Shown here: positions 20,706-35,657 of the stretch, one piece after another
Layout: every line of letters starts with the position of its first letter
Position numbering within the stretch: the stretch's first letter is position 1
Virus record (IMG/VR): IMGVR_UViG_2740892433_000005
Coordinates: 1 to 35,657 of that record
Length of the DNA stretch: 35,657 bases
From: a virus
Taxonomy: Duplodnaviria > Heunggongvirae > Uroviricota > Caudoviricetes
Strand: one strand, 5' to 3'
Notes under the pieces: model-generated
Database searches by the model: none
What the model was told of the DNA's origin: nothing
Seen by the model: the letters and a program-made list of their open reading frames with translations, nothing else
Position numbers and translations under genes: made by a program

Positions 20706-21244
20706 GTGGCAATCCCCAGAATCTCGCGACGAAGTGCCTGTACTGCGTCGCTTGACAATCCGCCCTTACGGGCAATTTTCTCGGCCGCATTCGCTGCAAG
20801 TTCTGCTTTTTCCTTGACCTCACTCTGAAAACGCTTGAGATTGACAGAGGCGCGGGTCAGGGTCGCAATATTGCGGGAAGCGGTGGCCAGCAATTTCGCC
20901 CGATCAGTCGGATCATTCTCGTCACTGACTTGTTGCAGACGCATCAGGATGTCGATCATCTCCGTCTGGATCAACGTCATCAGTCCCGCAGAACGGTCAT
21001 CCGCATCATCCCCCGCTTCACGAGCCATCAGCCTGGCTGCTTCAGTTGCCGCACGAACACGGGCCAGTTGCTGCTCCATTTTGTAGCCGAACCGCTGCAG
21101 GGAGGAGCGGGTTATCACATATCCCCTCTCTTTTAACAAACTTTCAAGTTCAGCATAGCCGGTGAAATTATTCTCCGTCAGCGCCCGCTCCAGCCAGCGG
21201 CGGACATCCGTCGGCAGAGAATCAATGCTGCTGCGACGTCCCAT
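20702..21244 (-). CDS. terminase small subunit-like protein (Mu gp27-like)
   Basis: ORF track 20702..21250; ATG at 21244; N-terminus (..GRRSSIDSLPTDVRRWLERAL..) resembles Mu gp27-type proteins as remembered; sits immediately upstream of the large terminase. Confidence 0.5.
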   Translation of the reverse strand: MGRRSSIDSLPTDVRRWLERALTENNFTGYAELESLLKERGYVITRSSLQRFGYKMEQQLARVRAATEAARLMAREAGDDADDRSAGLMTLIQTEMIDILMRLQQVSDENDPTDRAKLLATASRNIATLTRASVNLKRFQSEVKEKAELAANAAEKIARKGGLSSDAVQALRREILGIAT

Positions 21245-24944: not shown

Positions 24945-25709
24945 ATGAAAATGCAGACATTACCCATCGTTCCATGGATTGGTGGCAAACGCCGCCTTGC
25001 AAAACACATTCTGCCGCTGTTTCCGGCGCATGAATGTTATGTGGAGCCGTTTTGTGGGGCAGCAGCGCTCTATTTTCTTAAGACACCCGGCAAGATCGAA
25101 GTCATTAATGATATCAACGGTGAACTGGTGAATCTGTACCGGGTGGTAAAGCATCACCTGGAAGAATTTGTCCGCCAGTTCAAATGGGCGCTGGTCAGCC
25201 GTCAGATCTACAAATGGCTGCAGATCACCCCGGAAGAAACACTGACGGATATCCAGCGTGCGGCACGGTTCTACTACCTTCAGAAGCAGGCGTTTGGCGG
25301 CAAGGTGGCAGAGCACAGCTTCGGTACCTCCACCACATCCCCGCCACGCTTCAACCTGCTGCGTATTGAAGAAGAACTGTCAACAGCACACCTGCGGCTT
25401 TCCAGAACAGTCATAGAACACATGGACTGGCAACAGTGCATTGAGCGTTATGATCGTCCGCACACACTGTTCTACTGCGACCCACCGTACCTGGGTACGG
25501 AAGGCTATGGTGTGGATTTTCCTGAAGGGAACTACTCGCGGCTGGCAGAGCTGGCCCGGTGCATCAGAGGAAAAATGATAATTTCGGTGAACGATATCCC
25601 ACAGATGCGCGAGGTGTTCACTGGACTGAACATACAGACAGTGAACATCAACTACAGTCTGGCGGGGAAACCCACGCCGCGCCGTGAACTGGTAATCTGC
25701 AACTTCTGA
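24945..25709 (+). CDS. DNA N6-adenine methyltransferase, Dam (D12) class
   Basis: Motif I ..VEPFCGAAALYF.. and motif IV ..YCDPPYLGTEGY.. in the order typical of Dam-family enzymes; N-terminal ..PWIGGKRRL.. resembles the Dam N-terminus; 254 aa. Confidence 0.8.
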   Translation: MKMQTLPIVPWIGGKRRLAKHILPLFPAHECYVEPFCGAAALYFLKTPGKIEVINDINGELVNLYRVVKHHLEEFVRQFKWALVSRQIYKWLQITPEETLTDIQRAARFYYLQKQAFGGKVAEHSFGTSTTSPPRFNLLRIEEELSTAHLRLSRTVIEHMDWQQCIERYDRPHTLFYCDPPYLGTEGYGVDFPEGNYSRLAELARCIRGKMIISVNDIPQMREVFTGLNIQTVNINYSLAGKPTPRRELVICNF

Positions 25710-25715
25710 GACAAA

Positions 25716-25740
25716 ACCGGAAAGCACAATGCTTTCCGGT
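25716..25740 (-). terminator. intrinsic terminator-like hairpin between methyltransferase and repressor genes
   Basis: accggaaagca / tgctttccggt 11-bp perfect stem with a short loop; on the minus strand followed by UUUGUCUC; lies ~85 nt downstream of the repressor stop and 7 nt after the methyltransferase stop. Confidence 0.5.
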
Positions 25741-25825
25741 AAACCAGACGATTTCTGCCATGCTACTGACGGCGCTTTCTGAAAGCGTCCAGATCAACCA
25801 CCTGTCCTTTGTGTCCGGGTCAGTA

Positions 25826-26179
25826 TCAGCCTGCGATTTTTCCTGGTTTTGGCTGAGTATAGAATCGCCCAATCTCAAGAAATGAGCGTTGTTGGTCTGG
25901 TGTCATGTTGTCAAAAGTATCTATTAATTTTTGTTTTTCGGGGGATATCCGGTTCTGAATTTCCACCTCACCATCTGTGCTCATACCCGTAAGAATGAAG
26001 GCAACATCTACTCCTGCGGCTCCTAAAACTACCAGTTTATCTAGCGGGATATTTCCTTTTTCCATCCAGTTATAAATCGTCGCCCGCGAGATACCAGTGG
26101 ACTTAGATACCGCCAAAGGACCAACACGTTTTAATTCTGAAATGAGACGCGCATGTATTTTTTCTAAATTAATGGACAT
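25826..26179 (-). CDS. prophage repressor (XRE-family HTH)
   Basis: ORF track 25826..26401; chosen start is the in-frame ATG at 26179 (MSINLEKIH..) because the longer form would read through the operator region and the Ner-like gene start; HTH ..VSKSTGISRATIYNWMEKG.. and ..VDVAFILTG.. helix typical of XRE/CI-type repressors; divergent from the early operon; visibly AT-rich. Confidence 0.65.
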   Translation of the reverse strand: MSINLEKIHARLISELKRVGPLAVSKSTGISRATIYNWMEKGNIPLDKLVVLGAAGVDVAFILTGMSTDGEVEIQNRISPEKQKLIDTFDNMTPDQQRSFLEIGRFYTQPKPGKIAG

Positions 26180-26184
26180 AAAAC

Positions 26185-26213
26185 TTGCTCTGTCTAAATT
26201 TTTAGACAATAAT
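26185..26213 (+). promoter_or_regulatory. candidate early promoter with operator palindrome in the spacer
   Basis: TTGCTC (26185-26190), 17-nt spacer, AATAAT (26208-26213); the spacer contains the perfect 16-bp palindrome GTCTAAATTTTTAGAC (26192-26207); a related half-site tctaaatt occurs at 26164-26171. Confidence 0.45.
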
Positions 26214-26260
26214 CTATCACACATAACGCAAACATCATTGCACCAAACAAGGAGACAACA

Positions 26261-26449
26261 ATGACTGCAGACCAGGTCAAAGCTCATTTCCGTCGCAATG
26301 GGATCACTTTTACCCAGTGGGCAAAACAGAACAACTACACCAGAGCGGAGGTTTACCGCGTACTGAATGGCCAGGTAAAAGCGAACTACGGCAAAGCCCA
26401 TGAAATCGCTGTAAAGCTGGGATTAAAAACCATCACTGACGCTGCTTAA
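26261..26449 (+). CDS. small DNA-binding regulator, Ner/Cro-like by position
   Basis: 62-aa ORF, AAGGAG 6 nt upstream of ATG; first rightward gene divergent from the repressor; no confident family match by eye. Confidence 0.45.
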   Translation: MTADQVKAHFRRNGITFTQWAKQNNYTRAEVYRVLNGQVKANYGKAHEIAVKLGLKTITDAA

Positions 26450-26498
26450 AAAGATACAGCATACGAAAAAGATTATCACATATTGAAAAGGTGTGCAG

Positions 26499-26804
26499 AT
26501 GAGTAAGGCGAATGTTTCAAGCTCCGGCACCCGTATCCTTCGGGTACTTAAGGCACTGCGCGGTCATGCCCTGAACGGTATTTCCAACGGTGAACTGGCA
26601 GCAGCACTGCACGAGTCACCGGCAAACATCAACCGGGCACTCAACACCCTCATCGAAGAAGGGCTGGCTCTGAAACTGGAAAACGGACGTTTTGCGCCGG
26701 GCATCCAGTTGCTGCAGATCGCCATGGCTCATAACAATGAAATGGCCCATGCCCAGGCCCGTATTAATGAAATCAACCAGCGTGTTATCGCTGGCAGCCG
26801 TTAA
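26499..26804 (+). CDS. putative winged-helix DNA-binding regulator
   Basis: ATG at 26499 preceded by AAAAGGTG; product ..GTRILRVLKALRGHALNGISNGELAAALHESPANINRALNTLIEEGLA.. looks like a winged-helix HTH. Confidence 0.4.
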   Translation: MSKANVSSSGTRILRVLKALRGHALNGISNGELAAALHESPANINRALNTLIEEGLALKLENGRFAPGIQLLQIAMAHNNEMAHAQARINEINQRVIAGSR

Positions 26805-26813
26805 GGAATAACT

Positions 26814-27746
26814 ATGGCTCGTACAAAATCACAACCTGCTGAACTTGTCCCTGACGTGGAACTGAATCCTGAACTGGAATCAACCCAAAATTTAATGGCA
26901 ACAGCTATCAGCCAGATTACTGATGAACGTGACCTGCTGAACCAATTACTTGGCCAAGCACAGATGGCAGGAGCATTCGAAGATTTTTCCCGCACCGTGC
27001 GGACTTCTAAACTGGCTTTTGTCAAAGAAAACAAGCTATACCGAAATTTAAAAGGCTCAAAAAGTCCGCACGGTGCGGAAAAAATGTCAGGAACATGGGA
27101 AGAATTTTGCAGTTTGCTTGGCAGGTCTGTTGATCAAGTAGATCGCGATATTGCCAACCTGAGAACCTTCGGCGAAGAAGCCCTCGAATCCATGTCACGT
27201 ATGGGAATCGGTTACCGTGAATTACGCCAGTTCCGCCGGCTGCCGGACGACCAGAAAAACGCACTCATTGAAGTGGCCAAAGAAGGCGATAAAACGGCCC
27301 TGCTGGAATTAGCAGAAGAAATGATCGCCAGACACACAAAAGAGAAAGAAGAACTTAAAACTGATCTCGAAATCAGCCGTCAGATGCTGGCAGAGAAGAA
27401 AAGTGAAATCGAAGTTCTCAAGGATCAGACTGACGAACTAAAGACAAAACTGACGCGCCGCGCGACAACAGAGACACCTGATGAAGAAGGTCAGGTACTT
27501 GAAACTGAAGCCACCGGTTTTAAGAGCGGTGTACTCAGCGCTCTTATCAACCTCAAATGCGGTTTTGAGGCACTGGCCGAACACGCAGAACGTACAGGTA
27601 TCAGCCATACCCACATTATGACAGGGTTGCTTGATGATATTGAAGCCCGTGTTGTCGATATGCGTCAGCAGTTTGATTTGCCTGACTTCCGCGAGATTGA
27701 TGGCATGCCGGACTGGGTGAAAGAAGCACAGGAAGGGGATGAATAA
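26814..27746 (+). CDS. hypothetical protein with coiled-coil region
   Basis: 310-aa ORF with AAGGA RBS; Glu/Lys-rich central heptad-like segment; AT-rich compared with flanking phage genes; no family recognised. Confidence 0.4.
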   Translation: MARTKSQPAELVPDVELNPELESTQNLMATAISQITDERDLLNQLLGQAQMAGAFEDFSRTVRTSKLAFVKENKLYRNLKGSKSPHGAEKMSGTWEEFCSLLGRSVDQVDRDIANLRTFGEEALESMSRMGIGYRELRQFRRLPDDQKNALIEVAKEGDKTALLELAEEMIARHTKEKEELKTDLEISRQMLAEKKSEIEVLKDQTDELKTKLTRRATTETPDEEGQVLETEATGFKSGVLSALINLKCGFEALAEHAERTGISHTHIMTGLLDDIEARVVDMRQQFDLPDFREIDGMPDWVKEAQEGDE

Positions 27747-28092
27747 CATGGTCGCTTCACATCCGACACCACCAGTAAAAGAACGCGAACCACAAGAAAG
27801 CCTTTTTATGGACAGCCCGGAAGCTCTTGGATACGCGTTATGCACTCTTGTACCAGACATGATGGCGGGATTCAGCATCCTGACAAGTACCGGAGAAATC
27901 AGGATTTCAGCACCCGATGCGCCTGCATTTGCCACTGCAATGGAAACATTACTTCTGGAAAAAATTCACTATATCCAGAACGAACGCAGTGACCATTCTG
28001 CCAACAAACGGGCTGTTGAGGCTGCGGAGAAACTTCTGGAGAACCGTAAGAAATGGAAGCAATGGCAACAAGAAGTGAAGGCTAATTTATGA
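27739..28092 (+). CDS. hypothetical protein
   Basis: 117-aa ORF overlapping the stop of the upstream gene and the start of the transposase gene (ATGA). Confidence 0.35.
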   Translation: MNNMVASHPTPPVKEREPQESLFMDSPEALGYALCTLVPDMMAGFSILTSTGEIRISAPDAPAFATAMETLLLEKIHYIQNERSDHSANKRAVEAAEKLLENRKKWKQWQQEVKANL

Positions 28093-29882
28093 ATCCGGCG
28101 CTGACGCAACGGCTCGTCAGCATAGCCGCCGCCGCTGACGCAGCTATACACGGCGAAAAAGAGGCGGTATACCGGGCGGCGTGTGAAGAATTACAGATGT
28201 CACGCGCCACCCTGCTAAAAAAGCTTAAGGGTGTACGGATGAGCAAACCACGCAAACAGCGATCTGATGCAGGTAAAACGACACTGACTCACGATGAAAT
28301 GCTGACTATTTCTGGTGCATGGCTGGCATCACCTCGCCCTGGTAACGGCAAGAAAGGTTACAGCCTGGAGGATATTGTGGACGGTTTACGCGATAACGGT
28401 CTGATTATTGCTGGTCGAACCGATACTGAGACTGGAGAATTTTTCCCGCTATCAATTGACGCCATCAGTCGCGCCCTCCGCCAGCATCGTATGCATCCCG
28501 ACCAGTTACGGGCACCATCTCCTGCTCTGGAGCTGGCCAGCCTGCACCCAAACCACGTCTGGCAACTGGATGCGTCTATTTGCGTACTGTATTACCTCAA
28601 AAATCCGGCTAAAAAGGCTAAGGGGGACACCGGACTGCGCGTCATGAGCGCAGCAGAGTTCAACAAAAACAAACCCCGCAATTTGGACCGTATTGTCAAT
28701 GACAGGGTGTGGTCATTTGAAATCACCGACCATACCACAGGCTGGATTTACGTCGAGTACCGCTTCGGTGGTGAAAGCGCCGTCAACTTTCTGGAGGTGA
28801 TGATTAACGCCATGCAGGAACGCGGTGGTGCAGACGTGCTGCACGGCGTGCCGAAGATTCTGTTTACTGACCCGGGCTCTGCACTTGTTTCAGCCTCCCT
28901 GCTCAACATGTGCCGGGCGATGGGTATTTGTACCATTCAGCATAAGGCTCACAACGCCCGGGCCACCGGTTCGGTGGAAAAAGCCCGTGACATTATCGAA
29001 CGCAAGTTTGAAGGGGGGCTGCGTTTTCTGAGGGTGGATGATATTGATGAACTGAACCGGCTTGCACGTCTCTGGCGCATGAAGTTTAACCGCACAGCAA
29101 TTCACAGCCGCCACTGTATGTCGCGTACAGATGCGTGGTTGAGAATTACCGAAGAGCAACTGGTAAAAGCCCCGGCACCTGAAATCTGCAGGGAACTGGC
29201 CATCTCTTTACCTGAAGAACGCACTGTTACCGGCAAGTTGCGCGTACCTTTCAGAGGCAAGGAATACGATGTGTCTGATGTTCCTGGTGTATTTGTCGGT
29301 GACAAGGTGATGGTTGCCCGTAATCCCTGGTCAGATGAGGAGGCCAGAGTCGTTATCATCAATGATGAAGGCTTTGAAACCTTCCATGTTATTAACGCAA
29401 TACAGAAAGATGAACTCTGGCAGTACAGCACCAGTGCGCCGGTGATTGGAGAGGAGTACCGTCAGTTACCGGAGACCATTACCCGGACGAACCGCGATGA
29501 GGTGGAGCAACATACCTACGGCACTGCCAGCCGGGAAGAAACAGATGCGGCTAAAAAAGACAAAGCTCTGCCATTCGGTGGTCGCTTCAACCCTTATCTG
29601 GATATTGAGCGCGATGATCATCCTGCCTACCTGCCGAAGCGAGGCCAGGCCTCTGACGTACGCGGACCGCGCACTGAACAGCGTCCCATGACTCATGTGG
29701 AGGCCGCGAAAGCCCTGCGCGATAAGTTCAGCGCCGACGGCCTTACCTGGACGCCGGAACATTACCGCCAGTTAACGGCACAGTACCCGGACGGCGTACC
29801 GGAAGCTGCACTGGATGAAGTCATGGCCACGCTGACCACGCCGGCACGCAGCAGTGTTATCAGCATTGTTAACGGCAACTGA
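28089..29882 (+). CDS. DDE-type transposase (integrase-core, rve-like)
   Basis: 597 aa; N-terminal HTH-like region; candidate catalytic residues in ..HVWQLDASI.., ..ILFTDPGSA.. and a Glu ~35 residues further on, the D-D-35-E spacing of retroviral-integrase-type transposases; followed by an ATPase gene as in Mu A/B and Tn552-type pairs. Confidence 0.7.
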   Translation: MNPALTQRLVSIAAAADAAIHGEKEAVYRAACEELQMSRATLLKKLKGVRMSKPRKQRSDAGKTTLTHDEMLTISGAWLASPRPGNGKKGYSLEDIVDGLRDNGLIIAGRTDTETGEFFPLSIDAISRALRQHRMHPDQLRAPSPALELASLHPNHVWQLDASICVLYYLKNPAKKAKGDTGLRVMSAAEFNKNKPRNLDRIVNDRVWSFEITDHTTGWIYVEYRFGGESAVNFLEVMINAMQERGGADVLHGVPKILFTDPGSALVSASLLNMCRAMGICTIQHKAHNARATGSVEKARDIIERKFEGGLRFLRVDDIDELNRLARLWRMKFNRTAIHSRHCMSRTDAWLRITEEQLVKAPAPEICRELAISLPEERTVTGKLRVPFRGKEYDVSDVPGVFVGDKVMVARNPWSDEEARVVIINDEGFETFHVINAIQKDELWQYSTSAPVIGEEYRQLPETITRTNRDEVEQHTYGTASREETDAAKKDKALPFGGRFNPYLDIERDDHPAYLPKRGQASDVRGPRTEQRPMTHVEAAKALRDKFSADGLTWTPEHYRQLTAQYPDGVPEAALDEVMATLTTPARSSVISIVNGN

Positions 29883-29892
29883 GGAGGAAAAC

Positions 29893-31059
29893 ATGCTGGT
29901 ACTGAAGCAGCAACTGAAAGAGGCCCGTATCCCACAGGCGGTGGTGGCGAGAGCTGTCGATGTTTCTGAGGCCACGCTGGCCCAGATTGTGAATCATAAC
30001 GCGTGGCCCCGCACCAGCCCCGGAGAAGTGCGCCGGCGTCTTGCGTCCTGGCTGGAAAGTCAGGGGATTGATACAACGAAGAGTTTTGATGCTGTACAGG
30101 GCGCAGCCACGCCCCGTACAGCGGGTACCACAGATAAAACGAGCCTCAGTGAGGAAGAGAATATGTTACTCAAAAAACAGGTGTTATTTCCAGCAACCAA
30201 AAAAGCGTTTGGTCTTTTCCGTGACCCGTTCGCCGATGAAGCCATGCAGGGTTCTGATGATGTGTTCACCACCCCGGACATTCGCTACGTGCGTGAGGCG
30301 TTGTACCAGACAGCCCGTCATGGTGGGTTTATGGCCGTCATCGGTGAGTCCGGTGCGGGTAAATCCACGCTGCGCCGCGACCTGACTGAACGTATCAACC
30401 GCGAGAATGCGCCGGTAATTGTTATCGAGCCATACATCATCGCTATGGAAGACAACGATGTGAAAGGGAAAACCCTGAAGGCAGCAGCGATTGCCGAAGC
30501 CATTATCAGTACCATCGCACCACTGGAAAGCATCAGACGCAGTCAGGACGCCCGTTTTCGCCAGTTGCATCGCGTCCTGAAAGACAGCAGCCAGGCGGGG
30601 TTCAGCCACGTTCTGGTGATTGAGGAGGCCCACAGTCTGCCCATTCCGACACTGAAACACCTCAAACGCTTTTTTGAGCTGGAGTCCGGTTTCAAAAAAC
30701 TGCTGTCCATCGTGCTGATTGGCCAGCCGGAACTGGCGACAAAACTGTCTGAACGCAATATGGAAGTCCGTGAAGTCGTTCAGCGCTGTGAGGTGGTCGA
30801 ACTTCTGCCTCTGGACAATAACCTTGAAGAATTTCTGACGTTCAAACTGCAACGGGCCGGTAAACAGCTGACGGACATTATGGACGCCGGTGCAGTGGAT
30901 GCCATACGTGCCCGCCTGAGCAATCCGGGAAGTCACCGTAAAAATATGGTCAGCCTGCTGTATCCGCTGGCCGTCAGTAACCTGGTAATAGCCGCCATGA
31001 ATCTGGCCGCTGAAATCGGGGTTCCACAGGTCAACGCTGACGTTGTCAAAGGGGTTTAA
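29893..31059 (+). CDS. transposition ATPase (MuB-like, AAA+)
   Basis: ATG at 29893 with GAGGAGG upstream; N-terminal HTH-like segment then Walker A ..GESGAGKST.. and Walker B-like ..HVLVIEEAH..; immediately downstream of the transposase. Confidence 0.7.
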   Translation: MLVLKQQLKEARIPQAVVARAVDVSEATLAQIVNHNAWPRTSPGEVRRRLASWLESQGIDTTKSFDAVQGAATPRTAGTTDKTSLSEEENMLLKKQVLFPATKKAFGLFRDPFADEAMQGSDDVFTTPDIRYVREALYQTARHGGFMAVIGESGAGKSTLRRDLTERINRENAPVIVIEPYIIAMEDNDVKGKTLKAAAIAEAIISTIAPLESIRRSQDARFRQLHRVLKDSSQAGFSHVLVIEEAHSLPIPTLKHLKRFFELESGFKKLLSIVLIGQPELATKLSERNMEVREVVQRCEVVELLPLDNNLEEFLTFKLQRAGKQLTDIMDAGAVDAIRARLSNPGSHRKNMVSLLYPLAVSNLVIAAMNLAAEIGVPQVNADVVKGV

Positions 31060-31061
31060 TA

Positions 31062-31331
31062 ATGAAATCCACCACAGGTATCAACCAGCAAATCAGCAAA
31101 GTGCAGTCAGCCATTATGGCGCTTAAGGCGACGAACACGGATGTACAAAGCATCACCATCAGGGGTAACAAACCTGTCATCCGCGTTTCCCGGAGTGCGC
31201 ATTGCATGCGCATGCTTGAGCAGGGAAAGGCCTGTTATCTGTATACCGGACATGACCACAGGGGATATTTCCGTCAGGGCGTTTTCGAACTGCACGGCTG
31301 TCGCGTCGTGTGGCCGGAATCTTTGTGGTAA
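31062..31331 (+). CDS. hypothetical early protein
   Basis: 89-aa ORF starting 3 nt after the ATPase stop, AAAGGGG upstream. Confidence 0.35.
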   Translation: MKSTTGINQQISKVQSAIMALKATNTDVQSITIRGNKPVIRVSRSAHCMRMLEQGKACYLYTGHDHRGYFRQGVFELHGCRVVWPESLW

Positions 31332-31358
31332 TCAGCACAACTGGAGAAATCATAAAAA

Positions 31359-31889
31359 ATGGCAAAAAGTACAAAAGGTGCAAAACGTATCAAGGCCGCA
31401 GCAGCACTCTGGGTGCCGGGGACACGTGAAGAGGTCATTGAGGGAATCAGACTACTCGGTGACGCACAACGTGAACTGGTCAGGGCTGAAACAGAAATGA
31501 ATGACGCCATTGGCGATATCACCGCACGTTATGCCCCGCTCACCGAGAGCCTGAAAAAACGCATGGCCGAACTGCAGTCCGGTATTCAGACATGGTGTGA
31601 GGCACACCGTGATGAACTGACCGGCAACGGGAAGGTGAAGTTCGCTAACCTCACCACCGGCGAGGTGCAGTGGCGAAACCGTCCGCCGTCAGTCAGCATT
31701 CGCGGGGCGGATAATGTCATTGAACTGCTGAGACGTCTGGGGCTTGAGCGCTTTATTCGTGTAAAGGAGGAAATAAATAAAGATGCCATTCTGAATGAAA
31801 AAGAGGCTGTGAAAAATATTCCCGGTATTACCATAAAAAGTGATATTGAGGATTTTTCAATAATTCCTTTTGAGCAGGATGTGCAGTAA
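31359..31889 (+). CDS. gam: host-nuclease inhibitor Gam (Mu Gam-like DNA end-binding protein)
   Basis: 176 aa; long collinear similarity to Mu Gam as I remember it (MAK..KRIK.AAA..VP..R..VI..I...GD.QRE..R.ETEMNDAI..IT....P......WCEA.RDELT..GKVK.ANL.TG.V.WR.RPPSVSIRG.D.V.E.L.RLGL.RFIR.K.EINK.AIL.E..AV....GIT.KS.IEDFSIIPFEQ). Confidence 0.85.
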   Translation: MAKSTKGAKRIKAAAALWVPGTREEVIEGIRLLGDAQRELVRAETEMNDAIGDITARYAPLTESLKKRMAELQSGIQTWCEAHRDELTGNGKVKFANLTTGEVQWRNRPPSVSIRGADNVIELLRRLGLERFIRVKEEINKDAILNEKEAVKNIPGITIKSDIEDFSIIPFEQDVQ

Positions 31890-31931
31890 ACACACCACGT
31901 TAATTATTTAATAAAAACATTTTCTTTTTTA

Positions 31932-31968
31932 TTCCGGCGTCAGCGCCGCGGGCTTCTGCACGCCGGAA
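31932..31968 (+). other. stem-loop in the gam-downstream intergenic region
   Basis: ttccggcgt (31932-31940) and acgccggaa (31960-31968) perfect 9-bp inverted repeat with 19-nt loop, preceded by a T-run and followed by GAGGAG and the next ATG. Confidence 0.3.
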
Positions 31969-31986
31969 ACAGAGGAGAATTAAATC

Positions 31987-32181
31987 ATGATATTTAAATG
32001 TATTCAGTGCGAGAGGGATATAACAGCCCTGCGTTTTCACAGCGCCATCGCCGTGATGTCCGGTAAATACCACATCCCTGCGGTACGCGTCACCCTGGTC
32101 TGCCCGTACTGCAGCCAGCATTTTTCGGCAGACGTGCCCGTCATGGAATTCTCCCGCCCTGACAGGGAGGACTCGCAATGA
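31987..32181 (+). CDS. small Cys-rich protein (zinc-ribbon-like CxxC...CxxC)
   Basis: 64-aa ORF with C-x2-C (CIQC) and C-x2-C (CPYC) pairs about 38 residues apart; GAGGAG RBS. Confidence 0.4.
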   Translation: MIFKCIQCERDITALRFHSAIAVMSGKYHIPAVRVTLVCPYCSQHFSADVPVMEFSRPDREDSQ

Positions 32182-32450
32182 TTACCCCACAGGAAGCACG
32201 ACAGCGCACCCGAACCCTTGTTGAACACTATGTCAACGAGTGTGAATGCCGCGACCTCACCGATGTGAAGCACGTCCTGACGGCGCTAATCAGCATTGCC
32301 GCTCAGGCCATTGTGGCGACCAACGGAAAGGCGGCTGCCCTGCAGGTACTGGTGAACACACTCACCCACACGGCAGAGCATGAGGTGCCGTACCGGATGG
32401 AAACCACTGCAGAAGGCGGCCTGCACATCACCGTCAGCCGGAAGCACTGA
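32178..32450 (+). CDS. hypothetical early protein
   Basis: 90-aa ORF with ATGA overlap to the upstream gene. Confidence 0.35.
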   Translation: MITPQEARQRTRTLVEHYVNECECRDLTDVKHVLTALISIAAQAIVATNGKAAALQVLVNTLTHTAEHEVPYRMETTAEGGLHITVSRKH

Positions 32451-32459
32451 GGGCGCGGC

Positions 32460-32756
32460 ATGACACGGAACACCATACTCACCCGCACCGCCCTCTACCG
32501 TCTGGCCCTGCAGCGTTTCGGGCCGGACGCACAGGCCCTGAAACTGACAGAAGAGGCCGCTGAACTGGCGGCCAGTGCTGCCCGCAATCTGAACGGACAG
32601 GGCAGCGAAAGCGACCTCGCGGCAGAGCTGGCAGACGTGGAAATCATGACAGAGCAATTGCGCCTTCAGGGGATGGACCGGCTGATTGACTTCCACAAAC
32701 AGAAAAAACTGGAACGTCTGGCTGCACGACTGGGCGTGATTTACACGAACGAGTAA
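32460..32756 (+). CDS. MazG-like nucleotide pyrophosphohydrolase domain protein (tentative)
   Basis: 98-aa ORF with ..TEEAAELAAS.. and ..AAELADVEIMTEQL.. acidic helix motifs resembling the EExxE/ExxD pattern of small MazG-type enzymes. Confidence 0.4.
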   Translation: MTRNTILTRTALYRLALQRFGPDAQALKLTEEAAELAASAARNLNGQGSESDLAAELADVEIMTEQLRLQGMDRLIDFHKQKKLERLAARLGVIYTNE

Positions 32757-32770
32757 CCGGGAGGCATTCA

Positions 32771-32986
32771 ATGGCTGACATACTCAGTGAAATCACCGCA
32801 TGGATACTGATTCTTACTGGCCTGGCGACATGCCTCAGTGCGGGGGCAGCCCTGGCTGCCCTGCTGATGCACATAACAACACAGTGGTTATGGGAAAAGC
32901 TTAAAGCAGCATACAGCCTGAAAGAGCTGTCCGACGCTGTCCGGGCATGGAAACGGCAGAAAAATACCGGAGATACAGAACAATGA
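32771..32986 (+). CDS. small membrane protein
   Basis: 71-aa ORF, GGGAGG RBS; one hydrophobic helix (ITAWILILTGLATCLSAGAALAALLM). Confidence 0.35.
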   Translation: MADILSEITAWILILTGLATCLSAGAALAALLMHITTQWLWEKLKAAYSLKELSDAVRAWKRQKNTGDTEQ

Positions 32987-33666
32987 CAGACCAGAATAAA
33001 CACATTGAGAAACTGAAAAAGTTGCTGGCGCTGGCCGCATCCGGCAACCCGCACGAGGCCGCTCTGGCACTGCGCCGAGCCCGTAAACTGATGGATGTTC
33101 ACGGCATCACACATTCCGACATTGCTATGAGTGATATTGATGAAACCATCAGTCATTACTGGCCGACAGGCAGTCTCCGTCCACCGCGCTACATGCTGGG
33201 CCTGATGAACATCATCCGCGAGGCATTTGGTGTTAACTCCATCATTCACCCCGGCACGCATCCGTCTGTGGGGTTCTACGGTAACCGGGAACGAGCGGCA
33301 CTGGCTGCGTACACCTGGGAAGTGCTGGTCCGCCAGCTGAAAAAGGCGCGTCAGCAGTATATCAGCGCACAGAACAAAAGAATAAAAAACGCCACCCGTA
33401 CCAGCCGTGGAGACCAGTTTGCTGAAGGCTGGGTACTGGCCGTTATCAGTGAAATACAGTCCTTTGCCCTGACCGATGATGAGCGTGAACTGATGCAACA
33501 GTGGCTGGAACATAAATACCCGCAGACGCAAACCACCAGGGCGCGTAAACCGGGAAGAAGCCGCAATGGCGACGCCTCGCGCTATGCGGGGTTTCGTGAA
33601 GGGCAGAACGTCAGACTGCACCGCCCGGTCAGTGGGCAGGAACAACAGAAACTGGAGGCCAGATGA
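32983..33666 (+). CDS. conserved phage early protein (DUF2786-like N-terminus)
   Basis: ORF track 32947..33666; ATG at 32983 overlaps the upstream stop (ATGA); N-terminal ..KHIEKLKKLLALAASGNPHEAALALRRARKLM.. matches the motif I associate with this prophage protein family. Confidence 0.4.
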   Translation: MTDQNKHIEKLKKLLALAASGNPHEAALALRRARKLMDVHGITHSDIAMSDIDETISHYWPTGSLRPPRYMLGLMNIIREAFGVNSIIHPGTHPSVGFYGNRERAALAAYTWEVLVRQLKKARQQYISAQNKRIKNATRTSRGDQFAEGWVLAVISEIQSFALTDDERELMQQWLEHKYPQTQTTRARKPGRSRNGDASRYAGFREGQNVRLHRPVSGQEQQKLEAR

Positions 33667-33893
33667 TTACGCTATCAGGTAAAAGCCGGAAATTAAAAGC
33701 CTGCCGAATATCTGCCAGATACCTTTTTGCCCGCGCCTTTTTTAAGAACGTCAGGCCGGGGATCACAATTGGTGTTATTGCCGGACGCGAACAGGTTGAA
33801 AAATACATGTCAGGTGCATGGTGGAATAACGACCCTGTCATTGCTGCCCGTAATATTCATATCAGTTGGGGGGATATTCAGAATGACTACTGA
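33663..33893 (+). CDS. hypothetical early protein
   Basis: 76-aa basic ORF with ATGA overlap to the upstream gene. Confidence 0.3.
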   Translation: MITLSGKSRKLKACRISARYLFARAFFKNVRPGITIGVIAGREQVEKYMSGAWWNNDPVIAARNIHISWGDIQNDY

Positions 33894-34089
33894 AACCATT
33901 GTCTGTTTTCTTTTCTGGTATATGTACGCAGGATCATGCAGCGCAAGACTTCATCGTTCCCTGGGCTATGGCAGGCACTACGACACCGCGCATTACATCC
34001 TGTACATGACCGCCGTCATGTTGTTCTGGCCAGTCACCCTGCCAGCTGCAACCGACATTGTTGCCGACAGACTGAAAAAAAGGAGATGA
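33883..34089 (+). CDS. small hydrophobic protein
   Basis: In-frame ATG at 33883 within ORF 33727..34089, overlapping the upstream stop; product is largely hydrophobic. Confidence 0.3.
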   Translation: MTTETIVCFLFWYMYAGSCSARLHRSLGYGRHYDTAHYILYMTAVMLFWPVTLPAATDIVADRLKKRR

Positions 34090-34090
34090 T

Positions 34091-34540
34091 ATGCAGAAAA
34101 AACGCCTGATACAGCTTATCCATATTGCCCGTAATGAACTGGGTATGGATGAAGACACCTACCGCCAGATGTTACAGGGGCTGACCGGTAAAGCCTCAAC
34201 CAAAGGAATGGATACCACACAACTAAACTGCGTGCTGGAATCCATGAAAAAGAAAGGCTTTCGCGTTAAACCAGCCAGAAAAGCCAGCTCCGGTTTACCG
34301 CTTGATAACCATCCGCAGTCCAGGAAAATTCGTGCGCTATGGCTTGAAATGGCTGCTGCCGGCATTGTTCGTGACCGTTCAGAAAATGCATTAGCGAGGT
34401 GGATCAAGCGGGAAACGGGCATCAGCGCCCTGCGCTGGCTCAGTACTGAACAGGCAAGCAGTGTTATTGAGAAACTGAAGAAGTGGCAGCGCAGAGCTGC
34501 GGGAGTCAAACATGAGCGACCTGAATCAGTTTCGAAGTAA
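34091..34540 (+). CDS. gemA: GemA-like protein (Mu gp16 family)
   Basis: 149 aa; AGGAG RBS; N-terminal ..LIQLIHIARNELGMDEDTYRQMLQGLTGKAS.. fits the Mu gp16/GemA pattern as remembered; located just upstream of the Mor-like gene as in Mu. Confidence 0.55.
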   Translation: MQKKRLIQLIHIARNELGMDEDTYRQMLQGLTGKASTKGMDTTQLNCVLESMKKKGFRVKPARKASSGLPLDNHPQSRKIRALWLEMAAAGIVRDRSENALARWIKRETGISALRWLSTEQASSVIEKLKKWQRRAAGVKHERPESVSK

Positions 34541-34910
34541 GGGGCCGGAACTCCTGGTGGAACTGGCACAGCATACCTCTGAGACCGTTCGCGAGATTAT
34601 TGATATTGAGCCCGAAGTTGCCGACCAGATTGGTCAGGCCGTCGCGAACCGAATGATGCAGGTCTGGGGCGGGCAAAACGTTTATTTTCCTATGGGCATG
34701 GTATGGAAGGTCAGTCAGCGCGACCGGGAAATCTTCAGGGAGTTTAACGGACGCAACCACCACGAACTGGCCCGCAAGTTTGGTGTTTCGCTTCAGTGGG
34801 TCTACAGCGTGGTTAAGCGGGTCAGAAAAGAAGAACTGGATCGGATGCAGGGCAGGTTGTTTGATGAAGATCTGCCAGAGGAGACGAAAGACGTTAACAA
34901 ATCCAGATAA
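34512..34910 (+). CDS. mor: Mor/C-family transcriptional activator
   Basis: 132 aa; C-terminal ..GGQNVYFPMG....RDREIFREFNGRNHHELARKFGVSLQWVYSVVKRVRK.. matches the Mor/C HTH region pattern (..GGQ.VYIP.G......R...I...FNGRN...L...YGV....VY..IRR.R.); last gene of the rightward operon. Confidence 0.7.
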   Translation: MSDLNQFRSKGPELLVELAQHTSETVREIIDIEPEVADQIGQAVANRMMQVWGGQNVYFPMGMVWKVSQRDREIFREFNGRNHHELARKFGVSLQWVYSVVKRVRKEELDRMQGRLFDEDLPEETKDVNKSR

Positions 34911-34952
34911 TTCCTGCTTGTTAAAGTCCTTTCAAAAATCTCCTTATTGTAT

Positions 34953-34987
34953 AAAAGCACGGTAGACCCCTTACCGTGCTTTTTTTA
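34953..34987 (+). terminator. rho-independent terminator after the Mor-like gene
   Basis: agcacggta (34956-34964) and taccgtgct (34972-34980) 9-bp perfect stem, 7-nt loop, followed by TTTTTT (34981-34986); 46 nt after the stop codon. Confidence 0.7.
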
Positions 34988-35024
34988 TGCTCTCTCTTTA
35001 GTATTCAGGATGCAGGGAGAAAAT

Positions 35025-35657
35025 ATGTTTGACGTTTCGTTGTTAAATCTGCCATGGGCAACACTGGTGACCCTGACCAGTGGCTATATTGGGTATTTTA
35101 TTGCGAATGTGGGACTGAAGGATCACCACAAGCCCATTGAGGTGACTTTTTCTTCGCTGATTTTTGGCCTGACAGCAATGATGGCTTACCAGGCTGTTAT
35201 GTGGGCAGGTCTGAATGCCTGGCTGGCAACACCACCAGCACTTCTGTGTGCCGTTACATGCGGTGCGTGGTGGCGCAGGTACGGTCGCAAATGGATGTAC
35301 AGATTACTGTGGAATAATGATATTTCATGGTCTGACGATACCAGCTCAGCATGGCAGGCAATGTTTGATCAAACAGGCTTCAGCGTTACCGAGGTCAGAG
35401 TGATTCTTCGCGATGGTTCCGGTATGATGTCACGACTGCCAGGGAACTTTGAAGAGTGGCCTAACGGTCCGTTTACCCTGGGGAATAAAGGCGATATGGT
35501 TCTTTACGTCACGCACAGCAGCCCTTCAGGCAGTAACGAATGGGAAGAGTATAAAGGCGTGGTTGATAAGTACTGGGGAGCTCTGGCAACCTATATTCCA
35601 GCAGATCAGATTGCCAGAGTGGAGATCAGGCGCGTTCGTGCGACGAACGATGAATGA
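35025..35657 (+). CDS. membrane protein of unknown function (3 predicted N-terminal TM helices plus soluble C-terminal domain)
   Basis: ATG at 35025 with AGGGAG 8 nt upstream; hydrophobic segments in the first ~90 residues; stop codon is the last three bases of the window. Confidence 0.5.
   Translation: MFDVSLLNLPWATLVTLTSGYIGYFIANVGLKDHHKPIEVTFSSLIFGLTAMMAYQAVMWAGLNAWLATPPALLCAVTCGAWWRRYGRKWMYRLLWNNDISWSDDTSSAWQAMFDQTGFSVTEVRVILRDGSGMMSRLPGNFEEWPNGPFTLGNKGDMVLYVTHSSPSGSNEWEEYKGVVDKYWGALATYIPADQIARVEIRRVRATNDE

Follow-up and report, generated by a model that had tools for sequence, protein, structure and literature searches.

The 81-bp region that separates two divergent regulatory genes (26179, minus strand; 26261, plus strand) in the window, i.e. 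the whole stretch of 35,657 nucleotides analyzed here, is probably the two-operator lysogeny switch of a BcepMu-like prophage. A repressor dimer would occupy a main operator (O1) inside the early promoter (Pe), with a weaker second site (O2) acting as helper. This reading is drawn from sequence comparison. Across related loci, the dyad in the promoter spacer changes together with the DNA-binding domain of the repressor, and a second copy of it is found in most operator types at a nearly constant distance.

The prophage and its regulatory genes

E. coli SCU-105 carries the window as a BcepMu-like transposable prophage. Positions 25700-26900 showed a 100% match to the chromosome of this strain, and the annotated neighbourhood is a Mu-like prophage of ~36 kb. 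Leftward late genes encode a holin, an SLT transglycosylase, a DUF935 portal protein, head proteins similar to Mu F and G, as well as sheath, tube, and tape measure proteins. The rightward early operon encodes a small DNA-binding protein, an IclR-like HTH protein, a DDE transposase, an ExeA/MuB-like ATPase, Gam, and Mor. A gene order of the Mu type is thus present (repressor, small regulator, DDE transposase, and AAA+ transposition ATPase), and the transposition genes were recognized by profile (rve domain; PHROG 310, transposase; PHROG 296, transposition protein). The closest phage record was Escherichia phage PhiKM, classified as Bcepmuvirus. Features of BcepMu are present as well, i.e. a gp16-family gene that is divergent from a repressor in the gp17 position, together with Mu-type genes for transposition and morphogenesis. 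In BcepMu, gp17 was named as the repressor and is divergent from gp16, a DNA-binding protein (PMC2628397). From the prophage context and the positions of the gp16 and gp17 counterparts, it follows that the dyad lies where the lysogeny switch of a transposable phage is expected. The coordinates of all features are collected in Table 1.

Table 1. Features of the switch region and operator types of the E. coli relatives; positions refer to the window.
Feature	Position	Strand	Description
Repressor gene, 117 aa	25826-26179	-	Open reading frame and PGAP annotation; positional counterpart of BcepMu gp17
Exchangeable immunity cassette, ~270 bp	25940-26208	none	Repressor codons 1 to ~80, O2, -35 hexamer, O1
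O2, putative weaker second operator	26161-26178	none	TTTCTAAATTAATGGACA; overlaps the start codon (CAT, 26177-26179) and codons 1-6
Pe -35 hexamer TTGCTC	26185-26190	+	3/6 consensus matches; homologous in position to TTGACA-like hexamers in 81/86 loci
O1, very probable main operator	26191-26208	none	TGTCTAAA-TT-TTTAGACA; fills the 17-bp Pe spacer and the first -10 base
Pe -10 hexamer AATAAT	26208-26213	+	[C/A]ATAAT family-wide, with a constant distance to the first early gene
Conserved early leader	26214-26260	+	TATCACACAT at 26215-26224; AAACATCATTGCAC at 26230-26243; Shine-Dalgarno AAGGAGA at 26249-26255
First early gene, 62-aa DNA-binding protein	26261-26449	+	BcepMu gp16 family; positional analogue of Ner/Cro
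Type A			Window and strain SA53-3; O1 dyad at the Pe spacer slot
Type B			TATCCCATTATTGGGATA in the same Pe slot
Type C			Includes PhiKM; perfect 18-mer TGCTCATAATTATGAGCA in the same Pe slot

The overall layout is inverted with respect to Mu. Genes for lysis, head, and tail (1-23600) point leftward, away from the switch, and the early side occupies 26261-35657, with Mor at the far right of the early/middle operon (~34512-34910). In SCU-105, the right end of the prophage adjoins a truncated sulfatase-like pseudogene beside tRNA-Leu/secG (positions 30528-32016 of locus L001). A related prophage was detected in 528 of 5,426 complete E. coli genomes (~10%); the immunity type of the window is rare and was found in two of the same 5,426 genomes.

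The window repressor gave weak or borderline Pfam hits (Phage_CI_repr, AlpA); those of types B and C match HTH_3 directly. Its AF2 model, based on 15 homologues, has a mean pLDDT of 81 (~90 over residues 10-60) and consists of a five-helix HTH domain (residues 1-64), a disordered linker (65-79), and two C-terminal helices (80-108). Using Foldseek, the N-terminal domain was matched to the 434 repressor, P22 c2, SinR, DdrO, and the restriction-modification controller protein C.AhdI, with an rmsd of 2.5-3.2 Å over ~62-66 residues and a probability of 0.9-0.99, but with weak E-values (0.08-1). The model suggests an XRE-type HTH protein with a short helical oligomerisation tail, resembling SinR and DdrO. 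RefSeq/PGAP lists the protein as 'AlpA family phage regulatory protein'; this looks like a mis-annotation, since the predicted fold is a 434/P22-c2-like five-helix HTH followed by a two-helix tail. A cleavage domain of the S24/LexA type was not found, neither as a Pfam S24 hit in the 117 aa nor in the model, whose C-terminus is formed by two short helices. Sequence searches of the PDB with the repressor and the gp16-family protein returned nothing significant.

On the minus strand, an open frame of 191 aa (25826-26401) extends the repressor reading frame upstream through O1 and Pe into the gp16-family gene. Since relatives with different cassettes do not keep it, the frame is most likely due to chance and unlikely to represent a longer repressor isoform. 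At the other end of the gene, an 11-bp GC-rich stem-loop followed by a T-run (ACCGGAAAGCA-TTG-TGCTTTCCGGT, 25716-25740) is situated between the convergent ends of a DNA adenine methylase gene (25709) and the repressor gene (25826). It is likely the terminator of the repressor transcript and possibly acts in both directions.

The dyad in the early promoter and its co-variation with the repressor

An earlier sequence-only reading had described GTCTAAATTTTTAGAC (26192-26207) as a perfect 16-bp palindrome that sits in the spacer of the candidate early promoter. Its location between TTGCTC and AATAAT, with a spacer of 17 bp, was confirmed. The palindrome, in turn, proved imperfect, as positions 8 and 9 (TT) of this sequence are not self-complementary. 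The site is better delimited as two 8-bp arms around the non-symmetric TT, with 16 of 18 positions being symmetric. The repressor start codon lies 11 nt from the dyad on one side, and the rightward ATG 53 nt past position 26207 on the other.

The 35.6-kb window contains just four inverted repeats whose 8-bp arms are separated by a spacer of at most 4, and the chance of finding one anywhere in an 81-bp region of the local composition (35% GC) is ~0.006. A pattern search alone was not significant: the one exact hit was equalled in 45 of 100 shuffles when up to three mismatches were allowed. Hence, the decisive evidence is comparative. A role of the O1 palindrome as RNA or DNA hairpin was rejected, because its fold reaches just -4 kcal/mol and because it is located upstream of the inferred transcription start.

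For comparison, ~85-86 related loci were assembled, 80 of which were fetched from IMG/VR via the gp16-family protein. A promoter with -35 and -10 hexamers 17 bp apart, usually TTGACA-like and CATAAT-like, scored best among the sigma-70-like sites upstream of the gp16-family gene in 81 of 86 loci, in each case at the homologous position. While the position of this promoter is fixed, the sequence of its spacer varies. For the window, we infer a start of Pe transcription at ~26220. Its TTGCTC is the weakest -35 hexamer of the set, which is why a generic promoter scan favours a non-homologous site (TGGACA-16-TAAATT) in the window.

Operator types were counted by spacer sequence, giving 43 distinct spacers, since single-linkage clustering of the repressor N-terminal domains at 50% identity (11 clusters) merges XRE repressors with different operators. 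A strong dyad (at least seven of eight symmetric pairs) was present in 60% of the 43 spacers, compared with 1.1% of control 21-mers from the same loci and 1.6% of shuffled sequences. The identity of O1 between loci was correlated with that of the repressor N-terminal domain (Mantel r = 0.72, p = 0.0005; 0.75 in a second set). No such correlation was obtained for the gp16-family protein (0.22) or the product of the third gene (0.21), and the regression coefficients for O1 identity were 0.875, -0.17, and 0.04 for the N-terminal domain, the gp16-family protein, and the third gene, respectively. Discordant pairs of loci displayed the same pattern. When the gp16-family proteins were at least 95% identical but the N-terminal domains less than 40%, 29% of the O1 positions were in common; when the former were less than 80% identical but the latter at least 70%, this value rose to 88%.

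The E. coli relatives fall into three immunity types (Table 1), each with a dyad between a -35-like hexamer and the conserved AATAAT. Strain LR-31 carries a gp16-family protein identical to that of the window, but both its repressor and its dyad are of type B. Outside this set, the O1 arms TGTCTAA/TT[A/G]GACA are kept at 60-77% identity of the repressor N-terminal domain. Sources that keep the type A arms, even with a different leader and different early genes, comprise (i) Salmonella; (ii) Intestinirhabdus; (iii) a Simplicispira metagenome-assembled genome (MAG; 60% identity); and (iv) a metagenome locus in which the first early gene is a true Pfam Ner. In the Simplicispira MAG the leader is unrelated, yet the O1 arms and O2 are kept, as is likewise the case in the Salmonella and metagenome relatives. 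A scan of genome contigs with the repressor N-terminal domain returned three loci, one of them the Simplicispira locus.

Thus, the placement of a lysogeny-switch operator in the early promoter, as originally proposed, is borne out by comparison: the position is conserved, and changes in the dyad go along with changes in the HTH domain of the leftward repressor alone. Very probably, the lysogeny repressor binds chiefly at O1.

The second site, the proposed mechanism, and its alternatives

The sequence-only reading had also noted a related half-site, TCTAAATT, in the first codons of the repressor gene, and had assumed a single operator. The half-site is indeed present; it is found at 26163-26170 rather than 26164-26171 and belongs to a complete 18-bp copy of the operator. 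This copy, O2, is identical to O1 at 14 of 18 positions and located 30 bp to its left (null frequency ~0.0007), so that the assumption of a single operator was not supported: a full, weaker second site at this distance is a feature of the family. A search for further copies with GTCTAAANNTTTAGAC and TGTCTAANNNNTTAGACA, allowing up to three mismatches, covered the window and 41 kb of the SCU-105 chromosome. It recovered O2 as the sole other site within three mismatches of TGTCTAANNNNTTAGACA in the prophage, save for a hit at 1086 that is probably due to chance.

For a family-wide assessment, each O1 was compared at successive offsets with the 70 bp to its left, and comparisons of an O1 with the corresponding region of a different type served as null. 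A match of at least 12/18 was found in 74% of the operator types, as opposed to 3.6% in this null. Most offsets are 30-31 bp (~three helical turns), within a cluster of 29-34 bp, and O2 is kept at 29-30 bp in the Salmonella, Simplicispira MAG, and metagenome relatives. Its distance to O1 is fixed while the repressor start codon shifts, so that, depending on the type, O2 precedes the ATG in the 5′ UTR, spans it, or falls within the coding sequence. This argues for a role at the level of DNA and not of coding. The copies of O2 are less symmetric than O1 (2.9 versus 5.0 symmetric pairs), as expected for a weaker helper site. In some types the O2 match is weak; in type B, it amounts to 9-11/18 and is partly found at an offset of 20 bp.

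We propose that the 117-aa XRE-type repressor binds O1 as a dimer and, since this site fills the spacer between the -35 and -10 hexamers of Pe, physically excludes RNA polymerase. Silencing of Pe would shut the operon of the gp16-family regulator, the DDE transposase, and the MuB-like ATPase. With a spacing of 30 bp, O2 would lie about three turns of the helix upstream of O1, both sites facing roughly the same side. Repression would then be tightened by a further dimer, probably bound cooperatively to O2 via the short two-helix C-terminal domain.

Transcription of the repressor itself is less clearly delineated. Generic scans gave no minus-strand promoter near the switch, and no convincing leftward or back-to-back PRM-like promoter was found there, the gap between O1 and the start codon being just 11 bp. 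Two weak candidates emerged from a PWM scan of the minus strand, i.e. ATGATG-16-TGnTAGATT, an extended -10 element whose hexamer (26211-26216) overlaps the Pe -10 on the opposite strand, and TTGTCT-16-GATGTT, with a -10 hexamer at 26231-26236. Both reside in leader sequence that is conserved within the enteric subgroup alone. A third, distal candidate is TGTGATAAT at 26472-26480, which is also weak. A leaderless repressor start and a promoter between O1 and O2 were both rejected by eye, as no -10-like hexamer is present. Given the gap of 11 bp between O1 and the repressor ATG, the leftward promoter must either overlap O1/Pe or lie further to the right; in both cases, the transcript would cross O1 and O2. 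In the B3-like phage Fc02, RNA-seq attributed most repressor transcription to a distal promoter (pC1) that is antisense to ner and acts alongside the overlapping promoters pC2 and pE (PMC9936078), and a distal promoter is therefore a live possibility in the window.

With O2 on the repressor start codon and a leftward promoter no further left than O1, repressor-bound sites would stand in the path of the repressor's own transcription and would give negative autoregulation. The sequence arrangement makes such autoregulation plausible. We treat it as conjecture, because the leftward candidates score low and are conserved in the enteric subgroup alone, and because Fc02 uses a distal promoter.

Several alternatives to a two-operator switch were weighed. 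O1 alone could be functional, with the likeness of O2 stemming from coding or ribosome-binding constraint or being the relic of a duplication. In the window type, O2 occupies repressor codons 1-6, so that part of the site could be preserved by selection on the protein, and the O2 arms fall on conserved Met-Ser and Leu-Glu codons; its much lower symmetry and the poor match in the type B relatives point in the same direction. Against this stand the high frequency of an O1-like site at 29-34 bp in unrelated operator types relative to the cross-type null, and the changing position of O2 with respect to the start codon, by which O2 tracks O1 and not the gene. On balance, we consider a single functional operator unlikely.

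Much less probable still is that the dyad serves a regulator other than the leftward repressor, namely the gp16-family (Cro/Ner-like) protein or the IclR-like winged-helix protein. Both early proteins are predicted DNA binders, and lambdoid Cro binds the same operators as CI. However, loci with gp16-family proteins at least 95% identical, or third-gene products at least 90% identical, but with different repressor N-terminal domains had only 29-31% of O1 in common, which is the random level, and the gp16-family protein is nearly invariant across ~20 operator types.

A similarly small probability is given to a function of the O1/O2 region, in addition or instead, as transposition enhancer bound by the transposase, as in the operator region of Mu (IAS). 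Mu operators double as transposition enhancer, and the window is a transposable phage with a Mu-like order of repressor, small regulator, transposase, and ATPase genes. Yet no similarity between the repressor and the N-terminus of the transposase was detected (BLASTP E = 19), and heteroimmune relatives differ in the operator while their downstream early region, examined as far as ~26900, stays 60-100% identical. Finally, a chance AT-rich inverted repeat devoid of regulatory role is scarcely credible: the low local GC content and the non-significant pattern search would allow for it, but such a repeat is rarely expected in a region of this size and composition, and a dyad recurs in the same slot of most independent immunity types, co-varying with the repressor.

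The immunity cassette and comparison with known switches

The extent of the variable segment became evident from sliding identity to the heteroimmune E. coli relatives (L003, L004, and L005). Identity drops from 90-100% to ~50-60% within the cassette and recovers exactly at the -10 hexamer. Accordingly, the repressors of the three E. coli types differ in their N-terminal ~75 residues and have the C-terminal 40 aa in common; these 40 aa and the gp16-family gene are both outside the cassette.

The first early gene product was assigned to TIGR04111 (BcepMu_gp16, E = 1.2 × 10−27) and PHROG 925. It has no match to Pfam HTH_35 (Ner), and a profile search of the PDB misses Mu Ner. Across loci with unrelated repressors and operators, the protein displays a mean column identity of 74% with 29 invariant columns, and it is nearly invariant over ~20 operator types. 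This conservation implies that heteroimmune phages share the regulator in the Cro/Ner position.

Two further loci carry a type-A-like repressor together with the same O1/O2 arms in front of a different first early gene, i.e. a true Pfam HTH_35 Ner in L092 (metagenome SRR29142459) and a Mor-domain gene in L091 (Salmonella GCA_020543465.1). These pairings indicate that the repressor/operator cassette moves between early-operon backbones.

The leader between Pe and the gp16-family gene contains a motif, AAACATCATTGCAyCA (26230-26246), ~10 nt upstream of the Shine-Dalgarno sequence. Its core, TTGCATCA, is kept in nearly all loci (L007-L086), including distant ones; the motif may be a gp16 site or an mRNA element. 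A leader dyad, GCAA-N6-TTGC, was rejected as gp16 site, as arms of at least 5 bp were present in 16% of leaders versus 12% of shuffled sequences. We also noted a 10-mer, TATCACAYAT, in the inferred start region of Pe (26215-26224) that recurs in the same orientation in the spacer before the IclR-like third gene (26474-26483) and is found at 21113-21122 as well. Its count in the window is marginal (six hits with at most one mismatch versus 2.4 expected). Upstream of the third gene, TTATCACATAT is kept in the enteric relatives. Read on the minus strand, the second copy of the 10-mer corresponds to the extended -10-like TGTGATAAT and could be a distal leftward promoter.

Taken further, immunity in BcepMu-like phages might be carried by a ~270-bp cassette in a fixed scaffold, with gp16 and the presumed leader site common to heteroimmune phages; we regard this as a doubtful but possible extension. 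If it were true, and if gp16 antagonised repressor synthesis at the shared site, a superinfecting heteroimmune phage could induce a resident prophage in trans. The family would then also represent a natural library of ~20 orthogonal repressor/operator pairs in one promoter frame.

In several respects, the region resembles the OR regions of lambdoid phages (lambda, 434, P22). Repressor and early genes are divergent with a short region between them, dyad operators of 14-18 bp are placed on the lytic promoter, and multiple operators of graded quality are present; the predicted repressor domain is a five-helix HTH similar to those of 434 and P22 c2. The immunity module is mosaic, with a boundary inside the repressor gene and a C-terminal part common to heteroimmune phages, and such a boundary is likewise known from lambda and 434. 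Differences are equally clear. The window has two sites instead of three, at a centre-to-centre distance of 30 bp, whereas lambdoid operators are ~20-24 bp apart. Its repressor comprises 117 aa, with a predicted two-helix C-terminus and no S24/LexA-type cleavage domain. The protein in the Cro position is encoded outside the immunity cassette and, judged by co-variation, does not appear to track the operator. Moreover, O2 overlaps the repressor start codon, and a back-to-back PRM-like promoter is not evident.

With the c-ner regions of Mu and D108, the window shares the transposable lifestyle and the arrangement of a leftward repressor, a rightward small regulator, and then transposase and ATPase. 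In both, the small regulator apparently acts at a site other than the repressor operator, as co-variation suggests for the window. The Mu repressor has a winged-helix domain related to the N-terminus of MuA and binds non-palindromic repeat arrays over ~200 bp that include an IHF bend. In contrast, the window has an XRE-type HTH repressor with no transposase similarity and two short dyads within 48 bp, and the product of its first early gene is a BcepMu gp16-family member rather than a Pfam Ner/HTH_35 protein.

Other systems share single traits. The B3/D3112-type phage Fc02 has a short divergent region (106 bp), overlapping repressor and early promoters, and a CI-like repressor (PMC9936078); the divergent region of the window is shorter still (81 bp). 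The gp16-family gene of the window gave weak DNA hits to the B3-like phage PM105. Repressor sites between -35 and -10 hexamers and paired cooperative sites, as used by small dimeric or tetrameric repressors, are reminiscent of P22 Arc at Pant, C proteins at OL/OR, and SinR. The HTH with a short helical oligomerisation tail resembles SinR and DdrO, and C proteins share the XRE fold. For Arc, C proteins, and SinR, this is a likeness of fold and layout alone, with no family membership at the sequence level and with different spacing and biological role; Arc, in addition, is a ribbon-helix-helix protein.

A dyad operator in the lytic promoter combined with a helper site is an architecture of the textbook kind. 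In the searchable literature, no description of operators was found for BcepMu or other Bcepmuvirus phages. The switch of the BcepMu-like family appears, on comparative sequence grounds, as a new and well-supported case of a known kind. The analysis provides a testable map of the switch (O1, O2, and Pe) for BcepMu-like prophages, which are present in about one tenth of complete E. coli genomes. In addition, it points to ~20 natural repressor/operator pairs in a single 17-bp promoter slot, which may be of use for deriving HTH recognition codes and as orthogonal parts.
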